Shown in pieces: positions 1 through 5,591 of a DNA stretch of 5,591 bases; positions within the stretch are counted from its first letter, which is position 1, and every line of letters begins with the position of its first letter. This DNA comes from a virus. The notes below the pieces were generated by a model, which worked only from the letters and a program-made list of their open reading frames with translations, ran no database searches and had not been told where the DNA came from. Both the position numbers and the translations under genes were made by a program. The stretch spans positions 1 to 5,591 of the IMG/VR virus record IMGVR_UViG_3300045988_005188. One strand, written 5' to 3'.

Positions 1-55
1 TCGGGATTCCGAAGTAATCCGCCAGCGTTCCCACGTTCCATCCTCCTGCTGGTGC
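1..55. repeat. Terminal redundancy from linearising a circular genome. Window 1-55 is identical to 5537-5591, so the unit genome is 5536 nt.
   Basis: Direct comparison: tcgggattccgaagtaatccgccagcgttcccacgttccatcctcctgctggtgc occurs at both ends (55/55 nt). Confidence 0.95.
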
Positions 56-397
56 GGTCGTTACCGGTGTCGTGTACTCTGTCTGTTCTGCCCAGAAAGT
101 GCTGTCGTTCTGGCCCATGAGGTTTTGAAAGTGCTTCCACAGCAGTCGCGCAGGCACAAAGAAAAAGTAAAAATCCATATATGCATTATCCATGACCGGA
201 TAAAGCGGAGTTGCCATACGCACCAGCGCATTCAGGTTGATCTTGAAGGTATCGGCTGGCAACACCTCGTCAAGGTAGATCGGTACCAGATCGCCTTCGT
301 TCATGGTCGTCAGCAGGTTGAAATCTCGCTGAAATTTTGCGCGTCTGATTTCCGCATGAGGTACCTGTGCATAGTGTTGTTCACTGTTTCTGTTCAT
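1..397 (-). CDS. VP1: Major capsid protein VP1 (F-like), N-terminal part. The ORF starts at ATG 397..395 and runs off the window's low end. It continues in frame through the circular junction into 5536..4284, giving about 549 aa in total.
   Basis: Minus-strand translation from 397 reads MNRNSEQHYAQVPHAEIRRAKFQRDFNLLTTMNEGDLVPIYLDEVLPADTFKINLNALVRMATPLYPVMDNAYMDFYFFFVPARLLWKHFQNLMGQND... The motifs 'QVP..I.R..F.R', 'LVPIY.DEVLPADTF', 'ARMATP..PVMDN' and 'FFFVP.RLLW..F' are the conserved N-terminal signature of Microviridae VP1/F. The frame is continuous with ORF 4284..5570 (codon phase checked against the 5536-nt offset). The first in-frame stop lies upstream at 529..527. The RBS is GAGGT 8 nt upstream of ATG 397 (aacaaaaaacGAGGTaaacgcaaATG). 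The ORF track misses this piece because it runs off the window edge. Confidence 0.85.
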   Translation of the reverse strand, partial: MNRNSEQHYAQVPHAEIRRAKFQRDFNLLTTMNEGDLVPIYLDEVLPADTFKINLNALVRMATPLYPVMDNAYMDFYFFFVPARLLWKHFQNLMGQNDSTFWAEQTEYTTPVTTAPAGGWNVGTLADYFGIP

Positions 398-881
398 TTG
401 CGTTTACCTCGTTTTTTGTTGATACTGCTTTATCAGGGTGTTGTGCTGCATCTTCATTTTTTGTCGAAATGCCCATTTTTTCGAGCCATTCGGCTTCTCC
501 TGCGGTTGCTGCCCAGTTCTGAAAGTTCATGCCGAACTTCTGCCTGATCTCCAGCGGCAGCATGTCGAACTTCTCGCGCTGCTCGTTCATCATGTTCAGG
601 TATTCGGTGTAGGTTTTCGGCAGTTTCGTGGTGTCGATGTAGTAGCCCGGCGTTGCCAGTGCGCTTTCGTCGCCTGCTGCGTATCGGCTGAGAATGGCCA
701 TCACGTCGCACTGGTCGCGGTAGCTCTGAATTTTTTCGTAGGTGTTGACTTCTCCGACTTTTTCAAGGTACGGGTGCCCGTTGTCGTCGTACCGCTCTTT
801 GTACTCCGGTTCCATGATGTTCCCGCAGCAGTTGCAGTGGACTTCCGGTTTTTCATCTTCGTATGGCTTAAAGATCTTCAT
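381..881 (-). CDS. VP3: Internal scaffolding protein VP3 (166 aa)
   Basis: ORF with ATG at 881. The segments 'RDQCDVMAILSRYAAGD', 'ATPGYYID' and 'EKFDMLPLEIRQKFGMNFQNW' resemble the conserved core of gokushovirus VP3. There is an AAGGAG 13 nt upstream. The 3' end overlaps the VP1 start by 17 nt in a different frame. Confidence 0.72.
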   Translation of the reverse strand: MKIFKPYEDEKPEVHCNCCGNIMEPEYKERYDDNGHPYLEKVGEVNTYEKIQSYRDQCDVMAILSRYAAGDESALATPGYYIDTTKLPKTYTEYLNMMNEQREKFDMLPLEIRQKFGMNFQNWAATAGEAEWLEKMGISTKNEDAAQHPDKAVSTKNEVNANEQKQ

Positions 882-1128
882 TCTTTTCGTTCATCTCCTT
901 TTTTTCCTGTTCCATGTTGTAAACCAGTTCCGGCGTCTGGCTCTGGATCTGGCCGGTTTCGGTGTCGTACATGCCAAGCTTGTAAATTCGCTTGTCGTCG
1001 CAGTCGCTTTTTTCTGTTTCTGCCGTGATCCACTTGAACGTGCGTTTTTTCACTTTCGGATTGATGCACATGAGGTTGCCAAAGGTGCCAGCGAGTTCGT
1101 CTTTGATCGTGAAAATTTCGAGAATCAT
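868..1128 (-). CDS. VP5: VP5-like small protein (86 aa), the putative ssDNA-synthesis / DNA-binding protein of gokushoviruses
   Basis: MILEIFTIKDELAGTFGNLMCIN...KRTF...DDKRIYKLGMYDTETGQI...PELV matches the gokushovirus VP5 pattern as I remember it ('FTI.D.KA..F..PF...N....R.F......D......LG.FD..TG.....P..L'). AAGGA lies 7 nt upstream of ATG 1128. The gene is located just upstream of VP3, as in gokushoviruses. Confidence 0.55.
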   Translation of the reverse strand: MILEIFTIKDELAGTFGNLMCINPKVKKRTFKWITAETEKSDCDDKRIYKLGMYDTETGQIQSQTPELVYNMEQEKKEMNEKNEDL

Positions 1129-1131
1129 GGT

Positions 1132-1335
1132 TTATTCCTTTCCCAGTTCGTAGATCTGTTTCGTGGTGATGTTATCGAGACCGTAGCGCAGCAGTGCCCT
1201 TGTTACTTTCGATCTGGGCAGCTCCAGTGTCTGGCTTACGTCCTCGATTTCTTCCAGCATGTTGTTTTCGATGTTGATCGCATATCTTATTTTCATCATG
1301 CTGGGTTCTTTTTGGTGATACGGTCTTTTGCTCAC
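1132..1335 (-). CDS. Ribbon-helix-helix (CopG/Arc/ParD-like) DNA-binding protein, 67 aa. It has a GTG start overlapping the upstream stop (GTGA).
   Basis: Protein ...MMKIRYAINIENNMLEEIEDVSQTLELPRSKVTRALLRYGLDN... An N-terminal beta-strand with alternating residues (IRYAINIEN) is followed by helix A, then 'LPRSKVTRALL', which matches the RHH helix-B N-cap motif (G/x-S-R-S-x-x-I-R-x-A-L). A strong SD (GAGGGGG) lies 9 nt before the GTG. An alternative ATG start 12 codons later has no SD. Confidence 0.55.
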   Translation of the reverse strand: MSKRPYHQKEPSMMKIRYAINIENNMLEEIEDVSQTLELPRSKVTRALLRYGLDNITTKQIYELGKE

Positions 1336-1451
1336 AGTCTGATTCCCCCTCTGCTCGGTTTCGGGTTCACGTTGATCTTTTTGGTTTTCTTTGCGGTGTT
1401 GGTGAAAATTTTCTTGTCGATCTTCGGTTTTACGGTCTTGCGGTATGCCAT
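1332..1451 (-). CDS. Small basic J-like / VP8-like DNA-binding (packaging) protein, 39 aa
   Basis: MAYRKTVKPKIDKKIFTNTAKKTKKINVNPKPSRGGIRL is highly K/R-rich. A perfect SD (AAGGAGGTG) lies 7 nt upstream of ATG 1451. The 87-aa version in the ORF track (1332..1595) would read through the T15 tract (FFFFF) and has no RBS, so the short form is preferred. Confidence 0.65.
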   Translation of the reverse strand: MAYRKTVKPKIDKKIFTNTAKKTKKINVNPKPSRGGIRL

Positions 1452-1481
1452 GATACCACCTCCTTTTTCTCTCATTTTACC

Positions 1482-1524
1482 AAAAAAAAAAAAAAACGCA
1501 AGGCTGATTTTCGTCAACCTTACG
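1482..1524 (-). terminator. Rho-independent terminator on the coding strand: an 11-bp stem (2 G.U), a 6-nt loop, then U15
   Basis: Minus-strand RNA reads CGUAAGGUUGA-cgaaaa-UCAGCCUUGCG followed directly by 15 U (the plus-strand A15 at 1482-1496). It sits 16 nt after the stop of the 53-aa ORF. Confidence 0.7.
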
Positions 1525-1539
1525 TTTTTAATGTTTGCA

Positions 1540-1701
1540 TTATTTGTTTTCGTATTCTTTGAGCTTTTCACAGATTGCTTCTGCCCATTCTTCATCCATG
1601 TTGTACTCTTTTTTTATTTCGTCTTTGTCTTTGCTTCTCCATCCGCCGTCGTAAAGAGCTGCTGCACAATCTTCTACATGTTCTTCATAGTAACTTTTCA
1701 T
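1540..1701 (-). CDS. Small acidic hypothetical protein, 53 aa (below the ORF-track cutoff)
   Basis: Hand translation of the minus strand gives MKSYYEEHVEDCAAALYDGGWRSKDKDEIKKEYNMDEEWAEAICEKLKEYENK, with ATG at 1701..1699 and TAA at 1542..1540. An in-frame stop lies immediately upstream. An SD (AAAGGATGG) lies about 10 nt upstream. The ORF is framed by a consensus promoter and a strong terminator. Roughly 16 of the 53 residues are acidic. Confidence 0.5.
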   Translation of the reverse strand: MKSYYEEHVEDCAAALYDGGWRSKDKDEIKKEYNMDEEWAEAICEKLKEYENK

Positions 1702-1730
1702 GGTTTAAGCACCATCCTTTCTACATCTTT

Positions 1731-1759
1731 ATTATACACCTCTTTTATACACTTGTCAA
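1731..1759 (-). promoter_or_regulatory. Consensus sigma70 promoter P2 (TTGACA-17 nt-TATAAT) reading toward the 53-aa ORF
   Basis: Minus strand: TTGACAagtgtataaaagaggtgTATAAT. The -35 box is at 1759..1754 and the -10 box at 1736..1731, with an exact 17-nt spacer. It shares an identical 18-nt core (aaaagaggtgtataataa) with P1. Confidence 0.6.
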
Positions 1760-1776
1760 GCACTTTTTTTCCTAGA

Positions 1777-1817
1777 GGTCGTCCGGTGCGCGCTGGGCCG
1801 CGCATGAAAAGGACGAC
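1777..1817. other. GC-rich compound hairpin: outer 7-bp stem GTCGTCC/GGACGAC and inner 6-bp stem TGCGCG/CGCGCA. On the plus strand it is flanked by T7 upstream and T6 downstream.
   Basis: Inverted repeats read directly from the sequence. The hairpin lies 50 nt downstream of the VP4 stop on the coding strand, but the U-tract geometry (hairpin + guaacUUUUUU) is correct only for plus-strand (antisense) transcripts. On the coding-strand RNA it is followed by cucuaggAAAAAAA. Confidence 0.5.
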
Positions 1818-1866
1818 GTAACTTTTTTGTGTCACGCCGTCCTGTTCCCTTTATTCAGCCGTTCTT

Positions 1867-2982
1867 TTAGATTTCTTCCCGGATAAGTTTTTTAAATTTA
1901 TCTTGATTTTTTCGATCTTTTACATCATAATATTCTTGCATGGTTAAGCCGGTTTGCTTGAGCTGAGCAAATAGCGCGTCGTTTGCGATTCTTCGGCGTT
2001 CTCTTTTGATTGCTTTCAGTTCTTCAGATTCGGCTTTTACTATTGTGTCTTCTATCGTCTCACTTTCTGCTTCTGATAGCGGTTTGCTGTTTGAATGTTC
2101 CAGATCAAAGAGCTTATCAAAATATCTTGGTGGTTTTGCTCTCCTTCCATTTTTCAGTTGAATTTCATCTTTTGCATAGATTTCATCTTTGTGTTCTTCA
2201 TAGTACTGCATTCCGATCGCAGGATTTTTGCTCATCATGCAGCGTTCTGGTAAAATTCCGAGTTCTTCATAATATTTTTTTGAATCTTTGCCGTAAATCT
2301 TTTTTGTCGTGTATCTTGCGGTGTATGCCATGTTTTTCCATTCTGCTGGTGCTACCACTACATGACCCATACCCCACAGCTTTGTGAGCCATTCAACATT
2401 GTAGTATCTGAAGCCGTTTTTCTGCTTGTAGATTTTCAGTTCTTCCGGTTTTATCGGCAGATCGTACACGATCGCATGATAGTGTGGTCTGTGTGTCTGG
2501 CTTCCATACTCGCCTGCTTGGTAGTACATCAGTTTTCCGGTATTTCTTTCATGGTATTCTAACCAGCGTCTTAGCCGTTTCCAAAATTTCTGCATGTCCT
2601 CATAGTTGAGTGTTAAGTTTTCTATGATGATCTCGCCTGTTTTTTTGTTAACGCCTAAACCTTGATTGTAAGACCATGGTACGTGTTCATTGTCGTATGT
2701 GAGTGTTAAAAACCATGCATTGTCGTGGTATGGAAGTTCCATTTCCATCCTGTTTGCCCAGCTGCTTGCATTTTGCATTTTACAGCCGGCACAGTGTCCA
2801 CATGGCAGGATTTGTGCATTTTCGTCTTTCAGCTTTCGCAGCAGCTTTTTTTCTAGGCTTTCTTCCAAGAATGGTCCTTCAATGTTGAGTTGGCTGTTGT
2901 GCTTCTTTCCTGCCAGCAGATACTTTTTCAGTGTCGTTATTTCGCCGTCTGCGAATCTTACCAAAGGTCTTGTGCACCCCAT
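1867..2982 (-). CDS. VP4: Replication initiation protein VP4 (HUH rolling-circle Rep), 371 aa
   Basis: HUH motif I is FLTLTYD. Motif II is HYHAIVY (HxH). Motif III, MAYTARYTTKK, is the catalytic Tyr motif (YxxxY..K). The N-terminus MGCTRPL (M.C..P) and the Cys cluster PCGHCAGC are typical of gokushovirus VP4. Confidence 0.9.
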   Translation of the reverse strand: MGCTRPLVRFADGEITTLKKYLLAGKKHNSQLNIEGPFLEESLEKKLLRKLKDENAQILPCGHCAGCKMQNASSWANRMEMELPYHDNAWFLTLTYDNEHVPWSYNQGLGVNKKTGEIIIENLTLNYEDMQKFWKRLRRWLEYHERNTGKLMYYQAGEYGSQTHRPHYHAIVYDLPIKPEELKIYKQKNGFRYYNVEWLTKLWGMGHVVVAPAEWKNMAYTARYTTKKIYGKDSKKYYEELGILPERCMMSKNPAIGMQYYEEHKDEIYAKDEIQLKNGRRAKPPRYFDKLFDLEHSNSKPLSEAESETIEDTIVKAESEELKAIKRERRRIANDALFAQLKQTGLTMQEYYDVKDRKNQDKFKKLIREEI

Positions 2983-3016
2983 ATGGATGTTTCACCCCGT
3001 TTACCTCAGTGGGCCC

Positions 3017-3060
3017 CAATAACCCTTCTTGATGTTATTGGGGCCCACTGACACAAAATT
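3017..3060. repeat. Perfect 17-bp inverted repeat (CAGTGGGCCCCAATAAC / GTTATTGGGGCCCACTG) around a 10-nt loop, lying between the RHH-1 stop and the VP4 start
   Basis: Exact reverse-complement arms at 3017-3033 and 3044-3060, with loop ccttcttgat. The arms contain GGGCCC. The loop and arm carry CTTGAT...TTATTG (plus strand) / AATAACATCAAG (coding strand). Confidence 0.8.
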
Positions 3061-3080
3061 TCTTGTTTCCTTCGTTTTCC

Positions 3081-3269
3081 TCATGGATTATTGTTGTCTT
3101 TTCCCATCGTTTCTACATATACCTGTAGTGCGTCCCTGATTATTTCGCTTGCTTGTGCTTTTCTTGGATTCTCTGTTCCTGTCCAGATGTTTTCTGTTGC
3201 CCAGTTTAAATTGTCTAGATCTTTCTGTGTAAGATTTATGTTGATTCTCTTTGCTACTTGGCTTTTCAT
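3081..3269 (-). CDS. Putative ribbon-helix-helix (CopG/Arc-like) regulator, 62 aa, encoded immediately upstream of Rep
   Basis: MKSQVAKRININLTQKDLDNLNWATENIW...ASEIIRDALQVYVE. It has a basic N-terminus followed by an alternating beta-strand (KRININLTQ), then helix A and helix B (SEIIRDAL). The SD AAGGGG lies 8 nt upstream of ATG 3269. The fit to RHH is weaker than for the 1132..1335 protein because of a longer inter-helix loop. Confidence 0.45.
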   Translation of the reverse strand: MKSQVAKRININLTQKDLDNLNWATENIWTGTENPRKAQASEIIRDALQVYVETMGKDNNNP

Positions 3270-3313
3270 GATTATACCCCTTTCTAGGTAAGGTGTGTGA
3301 TTAGTACACCCAT

Positions 3314-3342
3314 ATTATACACCTCTTTTCTGTGTCTGTCAA
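3314..3342 (-). promoter_or_regulatory. Consensus sigma70 promoter P1 (TTGACA-17 nt-TATAAT) driving the RHH-1 / VP4 operon
   Basis: Minus strand: TTGACAgacacagaaaagaggtgTATAAT. The -35 box is at 3342..3337, directly abutting the VP2 stop codon at 3343-3345. The -10 box is at 3319..3314, and the predicted TSS is about 40 nt before the RHH-1 ATG. Confidence 0.6.
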
Positions 3343-4272
3343 CTATCTATTCCTTGCTGTGTGCCCCGGGTTCCATTCAATGTCCCCGTGGCCTTCTCCA
3401 CTGATGCCCTTTTCGTTTCCTCGTGTCGTGCTGCTGCTCTGCTGGCTGCTCTGCTGGTTTAGGTTGCTGATCTGTTGTGCGCTGCTCGACATGATTTGAC
3501 TTGTTGCTTGTTGCATTTGCTCTGCGCTGTACCATTCGTTCGACTGCTTTGCCGTGTTGATCGCGCTCATCGCGTTTTGCAGGAACTGTGCCGTGTTGTT
3601 CCCATAGTCGTACATGCTTTGCATGGTCGCCGTGTGTGCGCTTGGGATGGCTGCGCTCTGAGTGTGTGAAAAGCTTTGCATTCCGCTGCTTGCTGTGCCG
3701 CCTGACGGTGTGCTTGCTCCGTATCCGTTGTATGCTGCTAAGATCGGATTCAAGCCTGCTGCTTTCAGGTCTTTCACGCCGCGCTGGTATGCGGTGCTGC
3801 TCATTCTTTCAGCCCACGCTCGTTGTGCTGCTGCTTCTGCGCTGTTGTACTTCTGTGCGCTGGTCTGGCTTGCGAGGTTCAGACCGTTCGCAACAATGTT
3901 TGATAGCATGTTTAGGCCGTTTGCGTAGCTCCACATACCTGTTTGCAGGTTGTTTGCCGTTGCTGCCTGTCCTGCGTTGAACCCTGCCGCCTGTCCTGCG
4001 TTGTTTCCGGTCGGGCTTCCCATTGCTGTTTGCAGGATTGAACCCAGTGCACTGGTGTTGCCTGTTGTTACGCTTCCACCGCTTGCGCTGGTTGTTCCGC
4101 TGGTTGTTCCGCTGGTGCTTCCGCTGCTCATGCTTGTGTTCATGCCCTGCTGTCCCATGGCGCTGCTGGTGCTTCCGCTTGTGTTGCTGAACAGATTTTT
4201 CATCTGTCCTGCGATCGACAGGCCGCCCGATACGATCGGCAGCCATGTCGTTAATCCTGATAAGAGGCCCAT
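3343..4272 (-). CDS. VP2: DNA pilot / minor capsid protein VP2, 309 aa
   Basis: It contains '[33 protein letters not shown]', which matches the conserved gokushovirus VP2 motif (ERMS.TAYQR.V.D.KAAGLNP.LA). The N-terminal 140 aa are G/S/T/Q-rich low complexity. The SD AAGGGGGTG lies 6 nt upstream of ATG 4272, which is 12 nt after the VP1 stop. Confidence 0.8.
3965..4003. repeat. 15-nt direct repeat gcctgtcctgcgttg x2 (period 24 nt) inside VP2. It encodes the duplicated peptide NAGQAA.
   Basis: Exact copies at 3965-3979 and 3989-4003. Confidence 0.8.
4087..4122. repeat. 12-nt tandem repeat x3 (gctggttgttcc, gctggttgttcc, gctggtgcttcc) inside VP2. It encodes (TSGT)n.
   Basis: Read directly. 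It produces the [17 protein letters not shown] low-complexity tract. Confidence 0.8.
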
Positions 4273-4283
4273 TTTGCACCCCC

Positions 4284-5591
4284 TTAGATCGTGTCAATTC
4301 CAGGTACGCTGTAGATCGGCATCGGTCGCGTCCATGCCTGTTCGTAGTAGAAATTACAGATGAATTGATGGCTGTTGGAACTCTGCACAGCGAGAGTTCT
4401 ATCAATGTTTTCTGTTCCTTCTTTGATCCAGCTGCTGGACAGGGTAGGAAGTGCGTCGTACTTGTCTGCATAGTGCCATGCATCCAGTGTCTGCGCGTAG
4501 GTGCTGCGCATTTCGCTTGTTACCATGTTGGTGCGGTATCTGTAGTCGGCCCATGCTTCTTGATACCCGAAAACTTCTTCGTCCTGCGGCTTGCCCTGTG
4601 CATAGATCTCCTGATTGAGAACTGCTTGTTCACCGAGGTTTGCAAGCATCGGGTCATAATAGCTGAAGCGCGTGTTTCTTGTCCAAAGCCTGCTCAAACC
4701 CTGTTGATAGCTGTGATCTACACGGATAGCTGCCAGACCCAGAACATAACCATGTTCCGTTGCCGAGTACGTGCACATGTTCTGGCTCAAGGTCGTCATA
4801 CTGTAAGCACCAGTGTTGCCCTGCGGCGATGTGCTGTCTGTGCTGCTGGTCTGAATGACCTGATTCACGTTGATCGGCATTCTGTGGCCGCCGATGTACT
4901 CAGATCGGTCAAGACGTGCATCCGGGCTGGTCACACCCCACGCGCCTTTTAGGATTTCTTTGTACCGGGTGCCGGTTCTGGCATCGCGTTCGAAGATATG
5001 CTGCACTGCGATGGCCTGTCGGAGATCGTTGATTGTTGCCGCTGTGACAGTGCTCAGGTCTGCTTGCATTGAGGTGTAGTTTATTTCGCTCGCGTTTGTT
5101 TGCCCACCGAACATTACAAGCGCTTTTCCGCTTTTGTTGTTCTTTTTTGATGCCGCGAGTTTCATGTTTGAGTTTATCGGAATGTTTTCGAGGTTTCCGC
5201 CTCCGTCTTGGAAAATCTCTCCATTTGCCATGGTTTCTGCACTATTTGGCCATACAATTTGTGCGTTTCCTGTCATTGGCAGCTGTACTGGTTCTGTAGA
5301 TTTCTGCGGAGACGGCAGGCAGCTTGTGAAGTAGTCTTTGTATTTGCAGACCTTCAAAGGCAAACCGCCTGCTTCTGCGTCTGACAGGTTTGTGCCGGTG
5401 TTTACGCCGGTTGTGGTCGTGTCGTTCATGCTCTGTGTGACAGGCTGCTGCAAATTTTCGTCTCGGAACCATTCGTTCCAAACTTTTGCATACGCCCGGA
5501 ACGGCAGGCTGTTCACCTTCAGGCCGCTCACGCCTGTCGGGATTCCGAAGTAATCCGCCAGCGTTCCCACGTTCCATCCTCCTGCTGGTGC
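4284..5591 (-). CDS. VP1: Major capsid protein VP1, C-terminal part (continuous with 1..397 across the circular junction). 5537..5591 duplicates 1..55.
   Basis: ...[40 protein letters not shown]... carries the 'LPFRAY....NEWFRD.NL' signature of Microviridae VP1. The GTG at 5570 listed as the start in the ORF track is internal, because the frame stays open upstream through the junction. The stop is TAA at 4284-4286. Confidence 0.9.

Follow-up and report, generated by a model that had tools for sequence, protein, structure and literature searches.

Organization of the VP2–VP4 junction

The DNA analysed here (the window) is IMG/VR virus record IMGVR_UViG_3300045988_005188, positions 1 to 5,591, and its element of interest is a 62-amino-acid (aa) open reading frame (ORF), orf62, which together with a promoter and a palindrome lies between the genes VP2 and VP4. 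Bases 1–55 recur at 5537–5591, and the window thus represents a complete circular genome of 5,536 nucleotides (nt). Every recognizable gene is carried on the minus strand, and by its sequence the genome is that of a gokushovirus-type microvirus, the closest database relatives being unverified Microviridae records from pig feces. The features on which the argument depends are the following, in window coordinates.

3343..4272, minus strand: VP2 (DNA pilot protein), matching phrog_18604 (1.5e-71) and other pilot-protein families
3314..3342, minus strand: promoter P1, TTGACA (3342-3337), 17-nt spacer, TATAAT (3319-3314), 12/12 consensus
3292..3310, minus strand: P1-leader inverted repeat, GGTGT (3310-3306), AATC (3302-3299), ACACC (3296-3292), about +3 to +21
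3081..3269, minus strand: orf62, 62-aa ORF, predicted ribbon-helix-helix (RHH) protein
3049..3064, minus strand: conserved flank AAATTTTGTGTCA, which is TGACACAAAATTT on the plus strand, right 3' of the hairpin
3006..3051, no strand assigned: origin-type hairpin, arms 3051-3034 and 3023-3006, loop 3024-3033
1867..2982, minus strand: VP4/Rep (HUH rolling-circle), matching PF23343 (2.1e-15) and phrog_942 (3.3e-100)
1731..1759, minus strand: P2, sister promoter, perfect TTGACA-17-TATAAT

An earlier note on this DNA had called VP4 an HUH Rep, and the two profile matches, along with an HYH motif and a tyrosine motif (AYTARYTTKK), bear this out. It had also placed a perfect promoter at the VP2 stop, and the stop codon (TAG, 3345–3343) does abut the -35 hexamer of P1; the window has two perfect sites, where 200 shuffles predict 0.00. 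The start of orf62 lies 44 nt past the P1 -10 hexamer and is served by a Shine–Dalgarno sequence (AAAGGGG, 3283–3277) and an ATG of its own, while 98 nt separate orf62 from VP4, 46 of which are taken up by the hairpin.

A conserved gene in one clade of gut gokushoviruses

Among gut gokushoviruses, orf62 is a genuine gene that is conserved within a single clade. A tblastn search recovered unannotated homologues (42–50 per cent identity) in four pig-feces microviruses, all between VP2 and VP4, and a profile search gathered 329 clusters at 90 per cent identity, none of them annotated in Pfam; for the best 120 of the 329 clusters, the contigs listed are all shorter than 6 kb. An exhaustive HMMER search with the single protein returned only about seven true relatives (50 per cent clustering) and two spurious repeat proteins. 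The order VP2, orf62 homologue, VP4 holds in all 42 loci fetched, with orf62 directly upstream of VP4 on the same strand and VP4 identity ranging down to about 50 per cent, and the ratio of non-synonymous to synonymous substitution rates (dN/dS) is 0.07–0.16 within alignable allele classes. The family is restricted to this clade, and the next-closest VP4 proteins (≤40 per cent identity) sit in genomes that lack it. Canonical gokushoviruses had been said to lack a gene between VP2 and VP4, which is only roughly true: Dulem virus 136, for example, has an unrelated annotated ORF of 58 aa at that position.

Three related loci (L008, L009 and L014) have VP2 and VP4 genes 92–99 per cent identical to those of the window and orf62 alleles that are only 47–55 per cent identical, the N-terminal strand being unchanged and the helices different. 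This is cassette-like allele exchange. About 6 per cent of orf62 homologues (P0021, P0023, P0109 and L221:3765-4004 among them) end in acidic tails such as PDDLPF, DDDDDLPF, EEEDLPF and DDDDLPY, which look like the C-terminal tip of the bacterial single-stranded DNA-binding protein (SSB), a recruiter of replication and repair proteins; the copy in the window ends in NNNP. A 66-aa ORF rich in Phe, Leu and Ser runs antisense to orf62 (3091–3291, plus strand). The antisense strand is T-rich and poor in stops, which most likely accounts for this ORF as an artefact; the purifying selection favors the orf62 frame.

Predicted fold of the orf62 protein

The orf62 protein is predicted to begin with a strand at about residues 7–13 (KRININL) followed by helices at 15–29 and 40–55, which is the topology of an RHH protein. 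Residues R8, N10, N12, L13, T14, S41 and R45 are invariant in the family. On the predicted strand R8, N10 and N12 alternate with the hydrophobic I9, I11 and L13, and the invariant S41 stands at the N-terminus of helix B, so that both the strand pattern and the N-cap are those expected of the fold. The alternation is that of the DNA-contact residues of Arc and CopG, and we take R8, N10 and N12 by analogy to be contact residues here as well.

Profile searches weigh against this assignment. Against the Pfam family RHH_1, orf62 scores 12 bits (E 0.21), below the cut-off of 20.5, and a PDB profile search with orf62 gave no significant match; across Pfam, PHROGs, NCBIfam and PDB profiles only sub-threshold RHH matches were obtained for it. 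A profile comparison with RHH families, which the earlier note had proposed, gave a divided answer: RHH_1 was matched weakly by five of twelve family members (best E 0.016) and the NCBIfam RHH family aCcr1_fam, also weakly, by six of the twelve (best 0.0041), but every match fell below the curated thresholds. The predicted fold and the invariant residues nonetheless agree with the RHH-like character first ascribed to the ORF, and neither a different fold nor widespread homologues with a structural role, the two outcomes named beforehand as contrary to it, came to light. On the structural model, then, the fold is ribbon-helix-helix. That orf62 might be a chance ORF in an intergenic spacer, short, unannotated in databases and without a significant profile match as it is, can be dismissed as next to impossible given the synteny in 42 genomes, the strong purifying selection, the Shine–Dalgarno sequence and ATG, and a confidently predicted fold with coherent structural neighbors.

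Promoters P1 and P2 and their repeated elements

Across the clade P1 and P2 are near-invariant well beyond their hexamers, and are more conserved than the genes that they drive. The P1 core AGGTGTATAWTATGRGTGTA is kept at the same place in related genomes, within the conserved form TTGACA-N11-AGGTGTATAWTATGRGTGTA-NN-AATC-NN-ACACY, and the corresponding form of P2 is TTGACAAGTGTAT-N5-AGGTGTATAATAAAGGTGTAG. In both promoters copies of GTGTA are spaced exactly 13 bp apart. One copy in P1 (GGTGTA, 3323–3318) overlaps the -10 hexamer, and the RGTGTA copies of P2 keep the same 13-bp distance, the third reading GATGTA in the window. These repeats are attractive as operators because the putative contact residues of orf62 are equally invariant.

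The P1-leader inverted repeat is present in all P1 copies with a near-invariant AATC in its spacer, and may be read as a candidate operator or else as a weak stem-loop in the 5' leader. Its outer pair is G-C in 10 copies, A-T in 13, G-T in 11 and A-C in none (Fisher p about 0.003, uncorrected for phylogeny). The leader was rejected as a strong RNA hairpin (-9.3 kcal/mol, z -0.8), although the pairing pattern is still suggestive.

P2 drives orf53 and, as the gene order implies, the genes downstream of it. It nearly duplicates P1, carries RGTGTA three times at 13-bp spacing, and is more conserved than its variable cargo gene, which may be of the orf53 family or an unrelated small ORF. One cargo family (MKY..DYEAAVNLMDNEIRE..) stands behind P1 in L003 and behind P2 in L172 and L216, and protein P0016 is a chimera of orf53 and orf62. 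Because the cargo family switches promoter, P0016 is chimeric and P2 resembles P1, recombination between the two promoters is suggested.

An extended pattern, TTGACA-N..-GGTGTATAAT-A[AT][AG]-G[AG]TGTA, turns up again in some 20 unrelated contigs of phages (15–200 kb, L162–L233), and L208 has tandem 13-bp GGTGTATAATAAA repeats. The presence of the core in these larger phages may reflect a promoter style peculiar to the host or a regulatory site that is shared.

The palindrome as an origin-type hairpin

The palindrome between orf62 and VP4 had been described as a perfect 17-bp repeat ending 34 nt before VP4 and belonging to an RHH control module. The repeat is indeed perfect, but its fully complementary arms are 18 nt long around a 10-nt loop (CCTTCTTGAT on the plus strand), a start at 3017 cuts through the distal arm, and the VP4 ATG (at 2982) lies 23 nt past the repeat. 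As DNA the hairpin folds at -21 to -22 kcal/mol on either strand (z about -7 to -8). Within the clade 96 per cent of stem cells are paired and 14 of 19 pairs have changed on both sides, a result reached in none of 500 shuffles, with almost no G-T intermediates. Little or no variation is seen in the loop, which reads RTCAAGARG on the gene strand, or in the 5' flank TTGTGTCA; the TGTCA core of the flank and two T residues ahead of a variable base are invariant throughout the clade.

On the plus strand the loop contains CTTGAT (3028–3033), that is, the nick-site core CTTG^AT. The annotated viral-strand origin of phiX174 is the A after CAACTTG (CAACTTG^ATATTAATAAC, rep_origin at 4306), and the hairpin loop matches this gene-A-protein nick site; the bases that follow CTTGAT (GTTATT) partially match the ATTAAT of phiX174. 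A putative Rep nick can by this analogy be placed on the plus strand between G3031 and A3032. There are two differences from phiX174: in gokushoviruses CTTGAT sits in the loop of a 15–18-bp hairpin, and in the clade of the window the strand that carries it is complementary to the genes.

A CTTGAT-loop hairpin was found in about 50 of 62 gokushovirus genomes whose VP4-sense strand is A-rich and in 22 of 26 that are T-rich, Chp2 included. In clades that lack orf62, as in that of the window, TGACAC comes after the hairpin on the strand bearing CTTGAT, and the whole module (stem, CTTGAT loop, stem, TGACAC) occurs in Chp2 (2903–2940), Dulem virus 136, KT264767, PQ006702 and dozens of IMG/VR genomes that lack orf62. 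Because it is found without orf62, the palindrome is most economically read, from this sequence distribution, as the VP4 (Rep) origin hairpin common to gokushoviruses, and the earlier placing of it within an RHH control module falls away.

It is very unlikely that the cassette uses the palindrome as an operator or as a transcription terminator. In principle a dimeric protein could recognize such a perfect 18-bp repeat between two genes, and as RNA the palindrome would be very stable (about -35 to -42 kcal/mol). However, the stem drifts in sequence with its pairing kept, invariance being confined to the loop and one flank; gokushoviruses that lack orf62, Chp2 among them, have the element too; and the loop matches the nick-site sequence of phiX174. 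No T-run follows the stem on either strand (GGTAAACGGGG on the gene strand, CACAAAATTT on the other), and a terminator scan did not report it. Both functions were rejected on the absence of a T-run, the covariation and the distribution. Rfam has no family for the palindrome, and a search with the pattern TTGTGTCA-N13-19-TCAAGAR was uninformative, the matches listed being mostly chance ones in large contigs.

Direct copies of ATCCAT(G/A) flank the hairpin (3079–3087 and 2984–2992, minus strand), one overlapping the orf62 stop (..NNNP*) and the other right ahead of the VP4 ATG. Similar copies are seen in most genomes of the orf62 clade and not in clades without orf62.

Hairpins between Cap and Rep with compensatory stem changes and conserved loops, to which no function was assigned, have been reported in reekeekee- and roodoodooviruses (PMC9865509). 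Those hairpins lie near Rep as here, but in other clades, and complementary-strand priming is discussed for them; a term search of that paper found no nick-site motif and no strand inversion.

Orientation of the candidate origin and the putative packaged strand

Orientation was surveyed in 88 genomes, all turned to the VP4-sense strand (L237–L241 and L243–L314 included). The A-rich group takes in the window, the whole orf62 clade and the MT135277-like clade, and the T-rich group takes in Chp2.

T-rich VP4-sense strand, n=26: AT skew -0.29 to -0.03; CTTGAT loop sense in 22, antisense in none
A-rich VP4-sense strand, n=62: AT skew +0.26 to +0.39; CTTGAT antisense wherever the hairpin was found

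Composition at four-fold degenerate sites of the sense strand follows the same division.

Window: A 42%, T 10%
MT135277: A 53%, T 16%
Dulem virus 136: A 8%, T 67%
PQ006702: A 5%, T 68%
KT264767: A 12%, T 50%
Chp2: A 24%, T 52%

The strand that bears CTTGAT is always the one enriched in T at synonymous sites. Such enrichment is a compositional mark of the packaged strand in phiX174-like phages, and because the CTTGAT strand carries it the base composition suggests that the clade of the window packages the strand complementary to its mRNAs. The genomes surveyed come from two or three clades and are not independent, and VP4 identities do not settle the count of inversions; as a further caveat, no C depletion was seen on the plus strand of the window. 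No description of antisense-packaged or negative-sense microviruses was found in the searched literature.

A proposed CopG-like regulator and rival readings

The reading that we tentatively favor, while granting it somewhat less than an even chance, is that the orf62 protein works in the manner of CopG: it would repress the P1 operon, to which its own gene belongs, and so limit the synthesis of Rep, and it might act at P2 as well. orf62 would be the first gene of a short transcription unit running from P1 through orf62 and the origin hairpin to VP4. The stretch between orf62 and VP4 lacks both the T-run of an intrinsic terminator and any strong promoter-like site; the only site nearby is a 9/12 match inside the 3' end of orf62. 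As a dimer or dimer of dimers, the protein would bind GTGTA-type elements over the -10 and +1 of P1, the proposed target being GGTGTA-N7-GGTGTA followed by an inverted ACACC with the conserved AATC between, and would perhaps also bind P2. Binding would place negative feedback on the synthesis of both orf62 and Rep, after the CopG/RepB logic of pMV158. DNA binding, the identity of the target, repression, co-transcription of VP4 and Rep nicking at the loop are all steps that we infer.

In pMV158, CopG represses the promoter ahead of copG-repB and sets RepB dosage (PMC2724298). The likeness lies in a small RHH protein (45–62 aa) encoded right upstream of an HUH initiator behind one strong promoter. 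The differences are several: CopG and orf62 share no detectable sequence homology, PF01402 (RHH_1) remaining below threshold; the origin hairpin lies between the two genes in the window and upstream of the promoter in pMV158; the candidate operator covers the -10 and +1 of P1 instead of the -35; and the module is part of an encapsidated phage in which a second promoter, P2, matches the first and serves the remainder of the genome. As to an antisense RNA partner, a promoter scan found no antisense-strand site near orf62 or VP4, and Rfam found nothing. Other RHH repressors (Arc, Mnt of P22 immI and omega of inc18) come from temperate double-stranded DNA phages or plasmids and differ in operator sequence and spacing. 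Operators are spaced 11 bp apart for Arc and 7 bp for omega, unlike the 13 bp between GTGTA copies here.

Several observations count against autorepression. The outer pair of the P1-leader repeat allows G-T and never A-C, which suits a nucleic-acid stem as well as a protein site. The core GGTGTATAAT-N3-GGTGTA with an upstream TTGACA is also found in the larger phage contigs mentioned above, whose flanks contain no relative of orf62, and it may be a host-specific promoter style and not an operator; because the same core recurs in phages without orf62, the GTGTA repeats are no more than a candidate operator. The inverted repeat, near-invariant at its AATC center, is the one element still peculiar to P1. 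In addition, A-rich gokushoviruses without orf62 carry near-consensus promoters (about 0.9 per genome), and thus a repressor is not needed to live with promoters of this kind.

The main rival, conceivable though unlikely, is that orf62 encodes an origin accessory factor, which would bind double-stranded DNA beside the hairpin and aid or modulate Rep nicking, or recruit host replication proteins, with any effect on transcription secondary. The model would be the RHH relaxosome proteins TraY, TraM, TrwA and NikA, which work with HUH relaxases. Such a role is suggested by the place of orf62 next to the origin, by the ATCCAT copies, specific to the clade, on either side of the hairpin, and by the acidic SSB-like tails (DDDLPF and similar) that about 6 per cent of homologues have. 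The relaxosome proteins serve a conjugative relaxase, where the partner of orf62 would be a phage Rep. The reading is weakened by sister clades, in which an origin of the type seen in the window exists without the protein.

A more elaborate possibility, to which we would give a lower probability again, is that the cassette sits at a gene-inverted origin in a phage whose packaged strand is antisense, and that the RHH protein, besides limiting Rep dosage, is an origin-proximal switch that closes P1 and P2 so as to let replication and packaging go ahead. Rolling-circle synthesis from the nick at G3031/A3032 would then meet transcription from P1 and P2 head-on, and the orf62 variants with SSB-like tails would additionally recruit host replication proteins. 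Were this so, Microviridae would have their first described transcription/replication regulator, and these would be the first antisense-packaged microviruses.

Least probable among these roles is that of an inter-phage or host-directed regulator, which would repress P1 and P2 of superinfecting relatives (cross-immunity) or host promoters. The putative contact strand and the promoter elements are near-invariant, and members of the clade should therefore recognize each other's promoters; the swapping of orf62 alleles between genomes with 95–99 per cent identity in VP2 and VP4 (L008, L009 and L014) points to selection on the helices and not on DNA specificity. These observations are compatible with autoregulation too, however, and no sign was seen of the phage persisting as a resident, the setting in which exclusion would operate. 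The plasmid-like or persistent state that the earlier note had envisaged is unsupported: neither the orf62 family nor close relatives of VP4 were found in 185,579 species-representative bacterial and archaeal genomes, the nearest VP4 matches (38 per cent identical) being in prophages or contigs of Oscillibacter and other Clostridia, and lysogeny or a plasmid-like state was dropped on this account. There are hints that the wider group has a Clostridia-type host range, with nothing direct on this clade.

Remaining features of the genome

The rest of the window is laid out as follows.

397->1 joined to 5536->4284, minus strand: VP1, Phage_F 4e-126
1540..1701, minus strand: orf53, driven by P2
1529-1492, minus strand: terminator-like hairpin with T-run, downstream of orf53
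about 1452-1335, minus strand: small basic J/VP8-like ORF
1299-1132, minus strand: orf67
1128-868, minus strand: VP5
881-381, minus strand: VP3, Chlamy_scaf

A nested G+C-rich hairpin lies at about 1785–1835, downstream of VP4, preceded on the gene strand by TGACACAAAAAAG, in which the origin flank is repeated in inverted form, and followed on the plus strand by a T-run. It could be the end of the P1 transcript or a signal for complementary-strand priming. This second copy of the origin flank and the nested hairpin are kept in the closest relatives only and are not a feature of the clade.

Implications for gokushovirus biology

Plasmids are well known to encode RHH regulators beside HUH initiators, and double-stranded DNA phages to encode RHH repressors. 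To our knowledge, microviruses are usually described with constitutive, unregulated expression and no dedicated DNA-binding regulator. The searched literature contained no RHH protein or regulator in Microviridae and no gokushovirus origin, the only relevant report being that of the Cap-Rep hairpins (PMC9865509), and a conserved RHH regulator in this family thus appears to be undescribed there.

The more surprising by-products are a candidate gokushovirus origin, the CTTGAT-loop hairpin, which was not found described in the searched literature, and its candidate inversion relative to the genes in A-rich clades. Antisense packaging in large gut clades, if true, would affect the sequencing, orientation and annotation of single-stranded DNA viromes. 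The cassette itself is a cheap experimental target, consisting of a 62-aa protein and two promoters of about 60 bp. A conserved RHH gene at the junction of promoter and Rep would mean that one gut gokushovirus clade has feedback on its replication initiator in the manner of plasmids.
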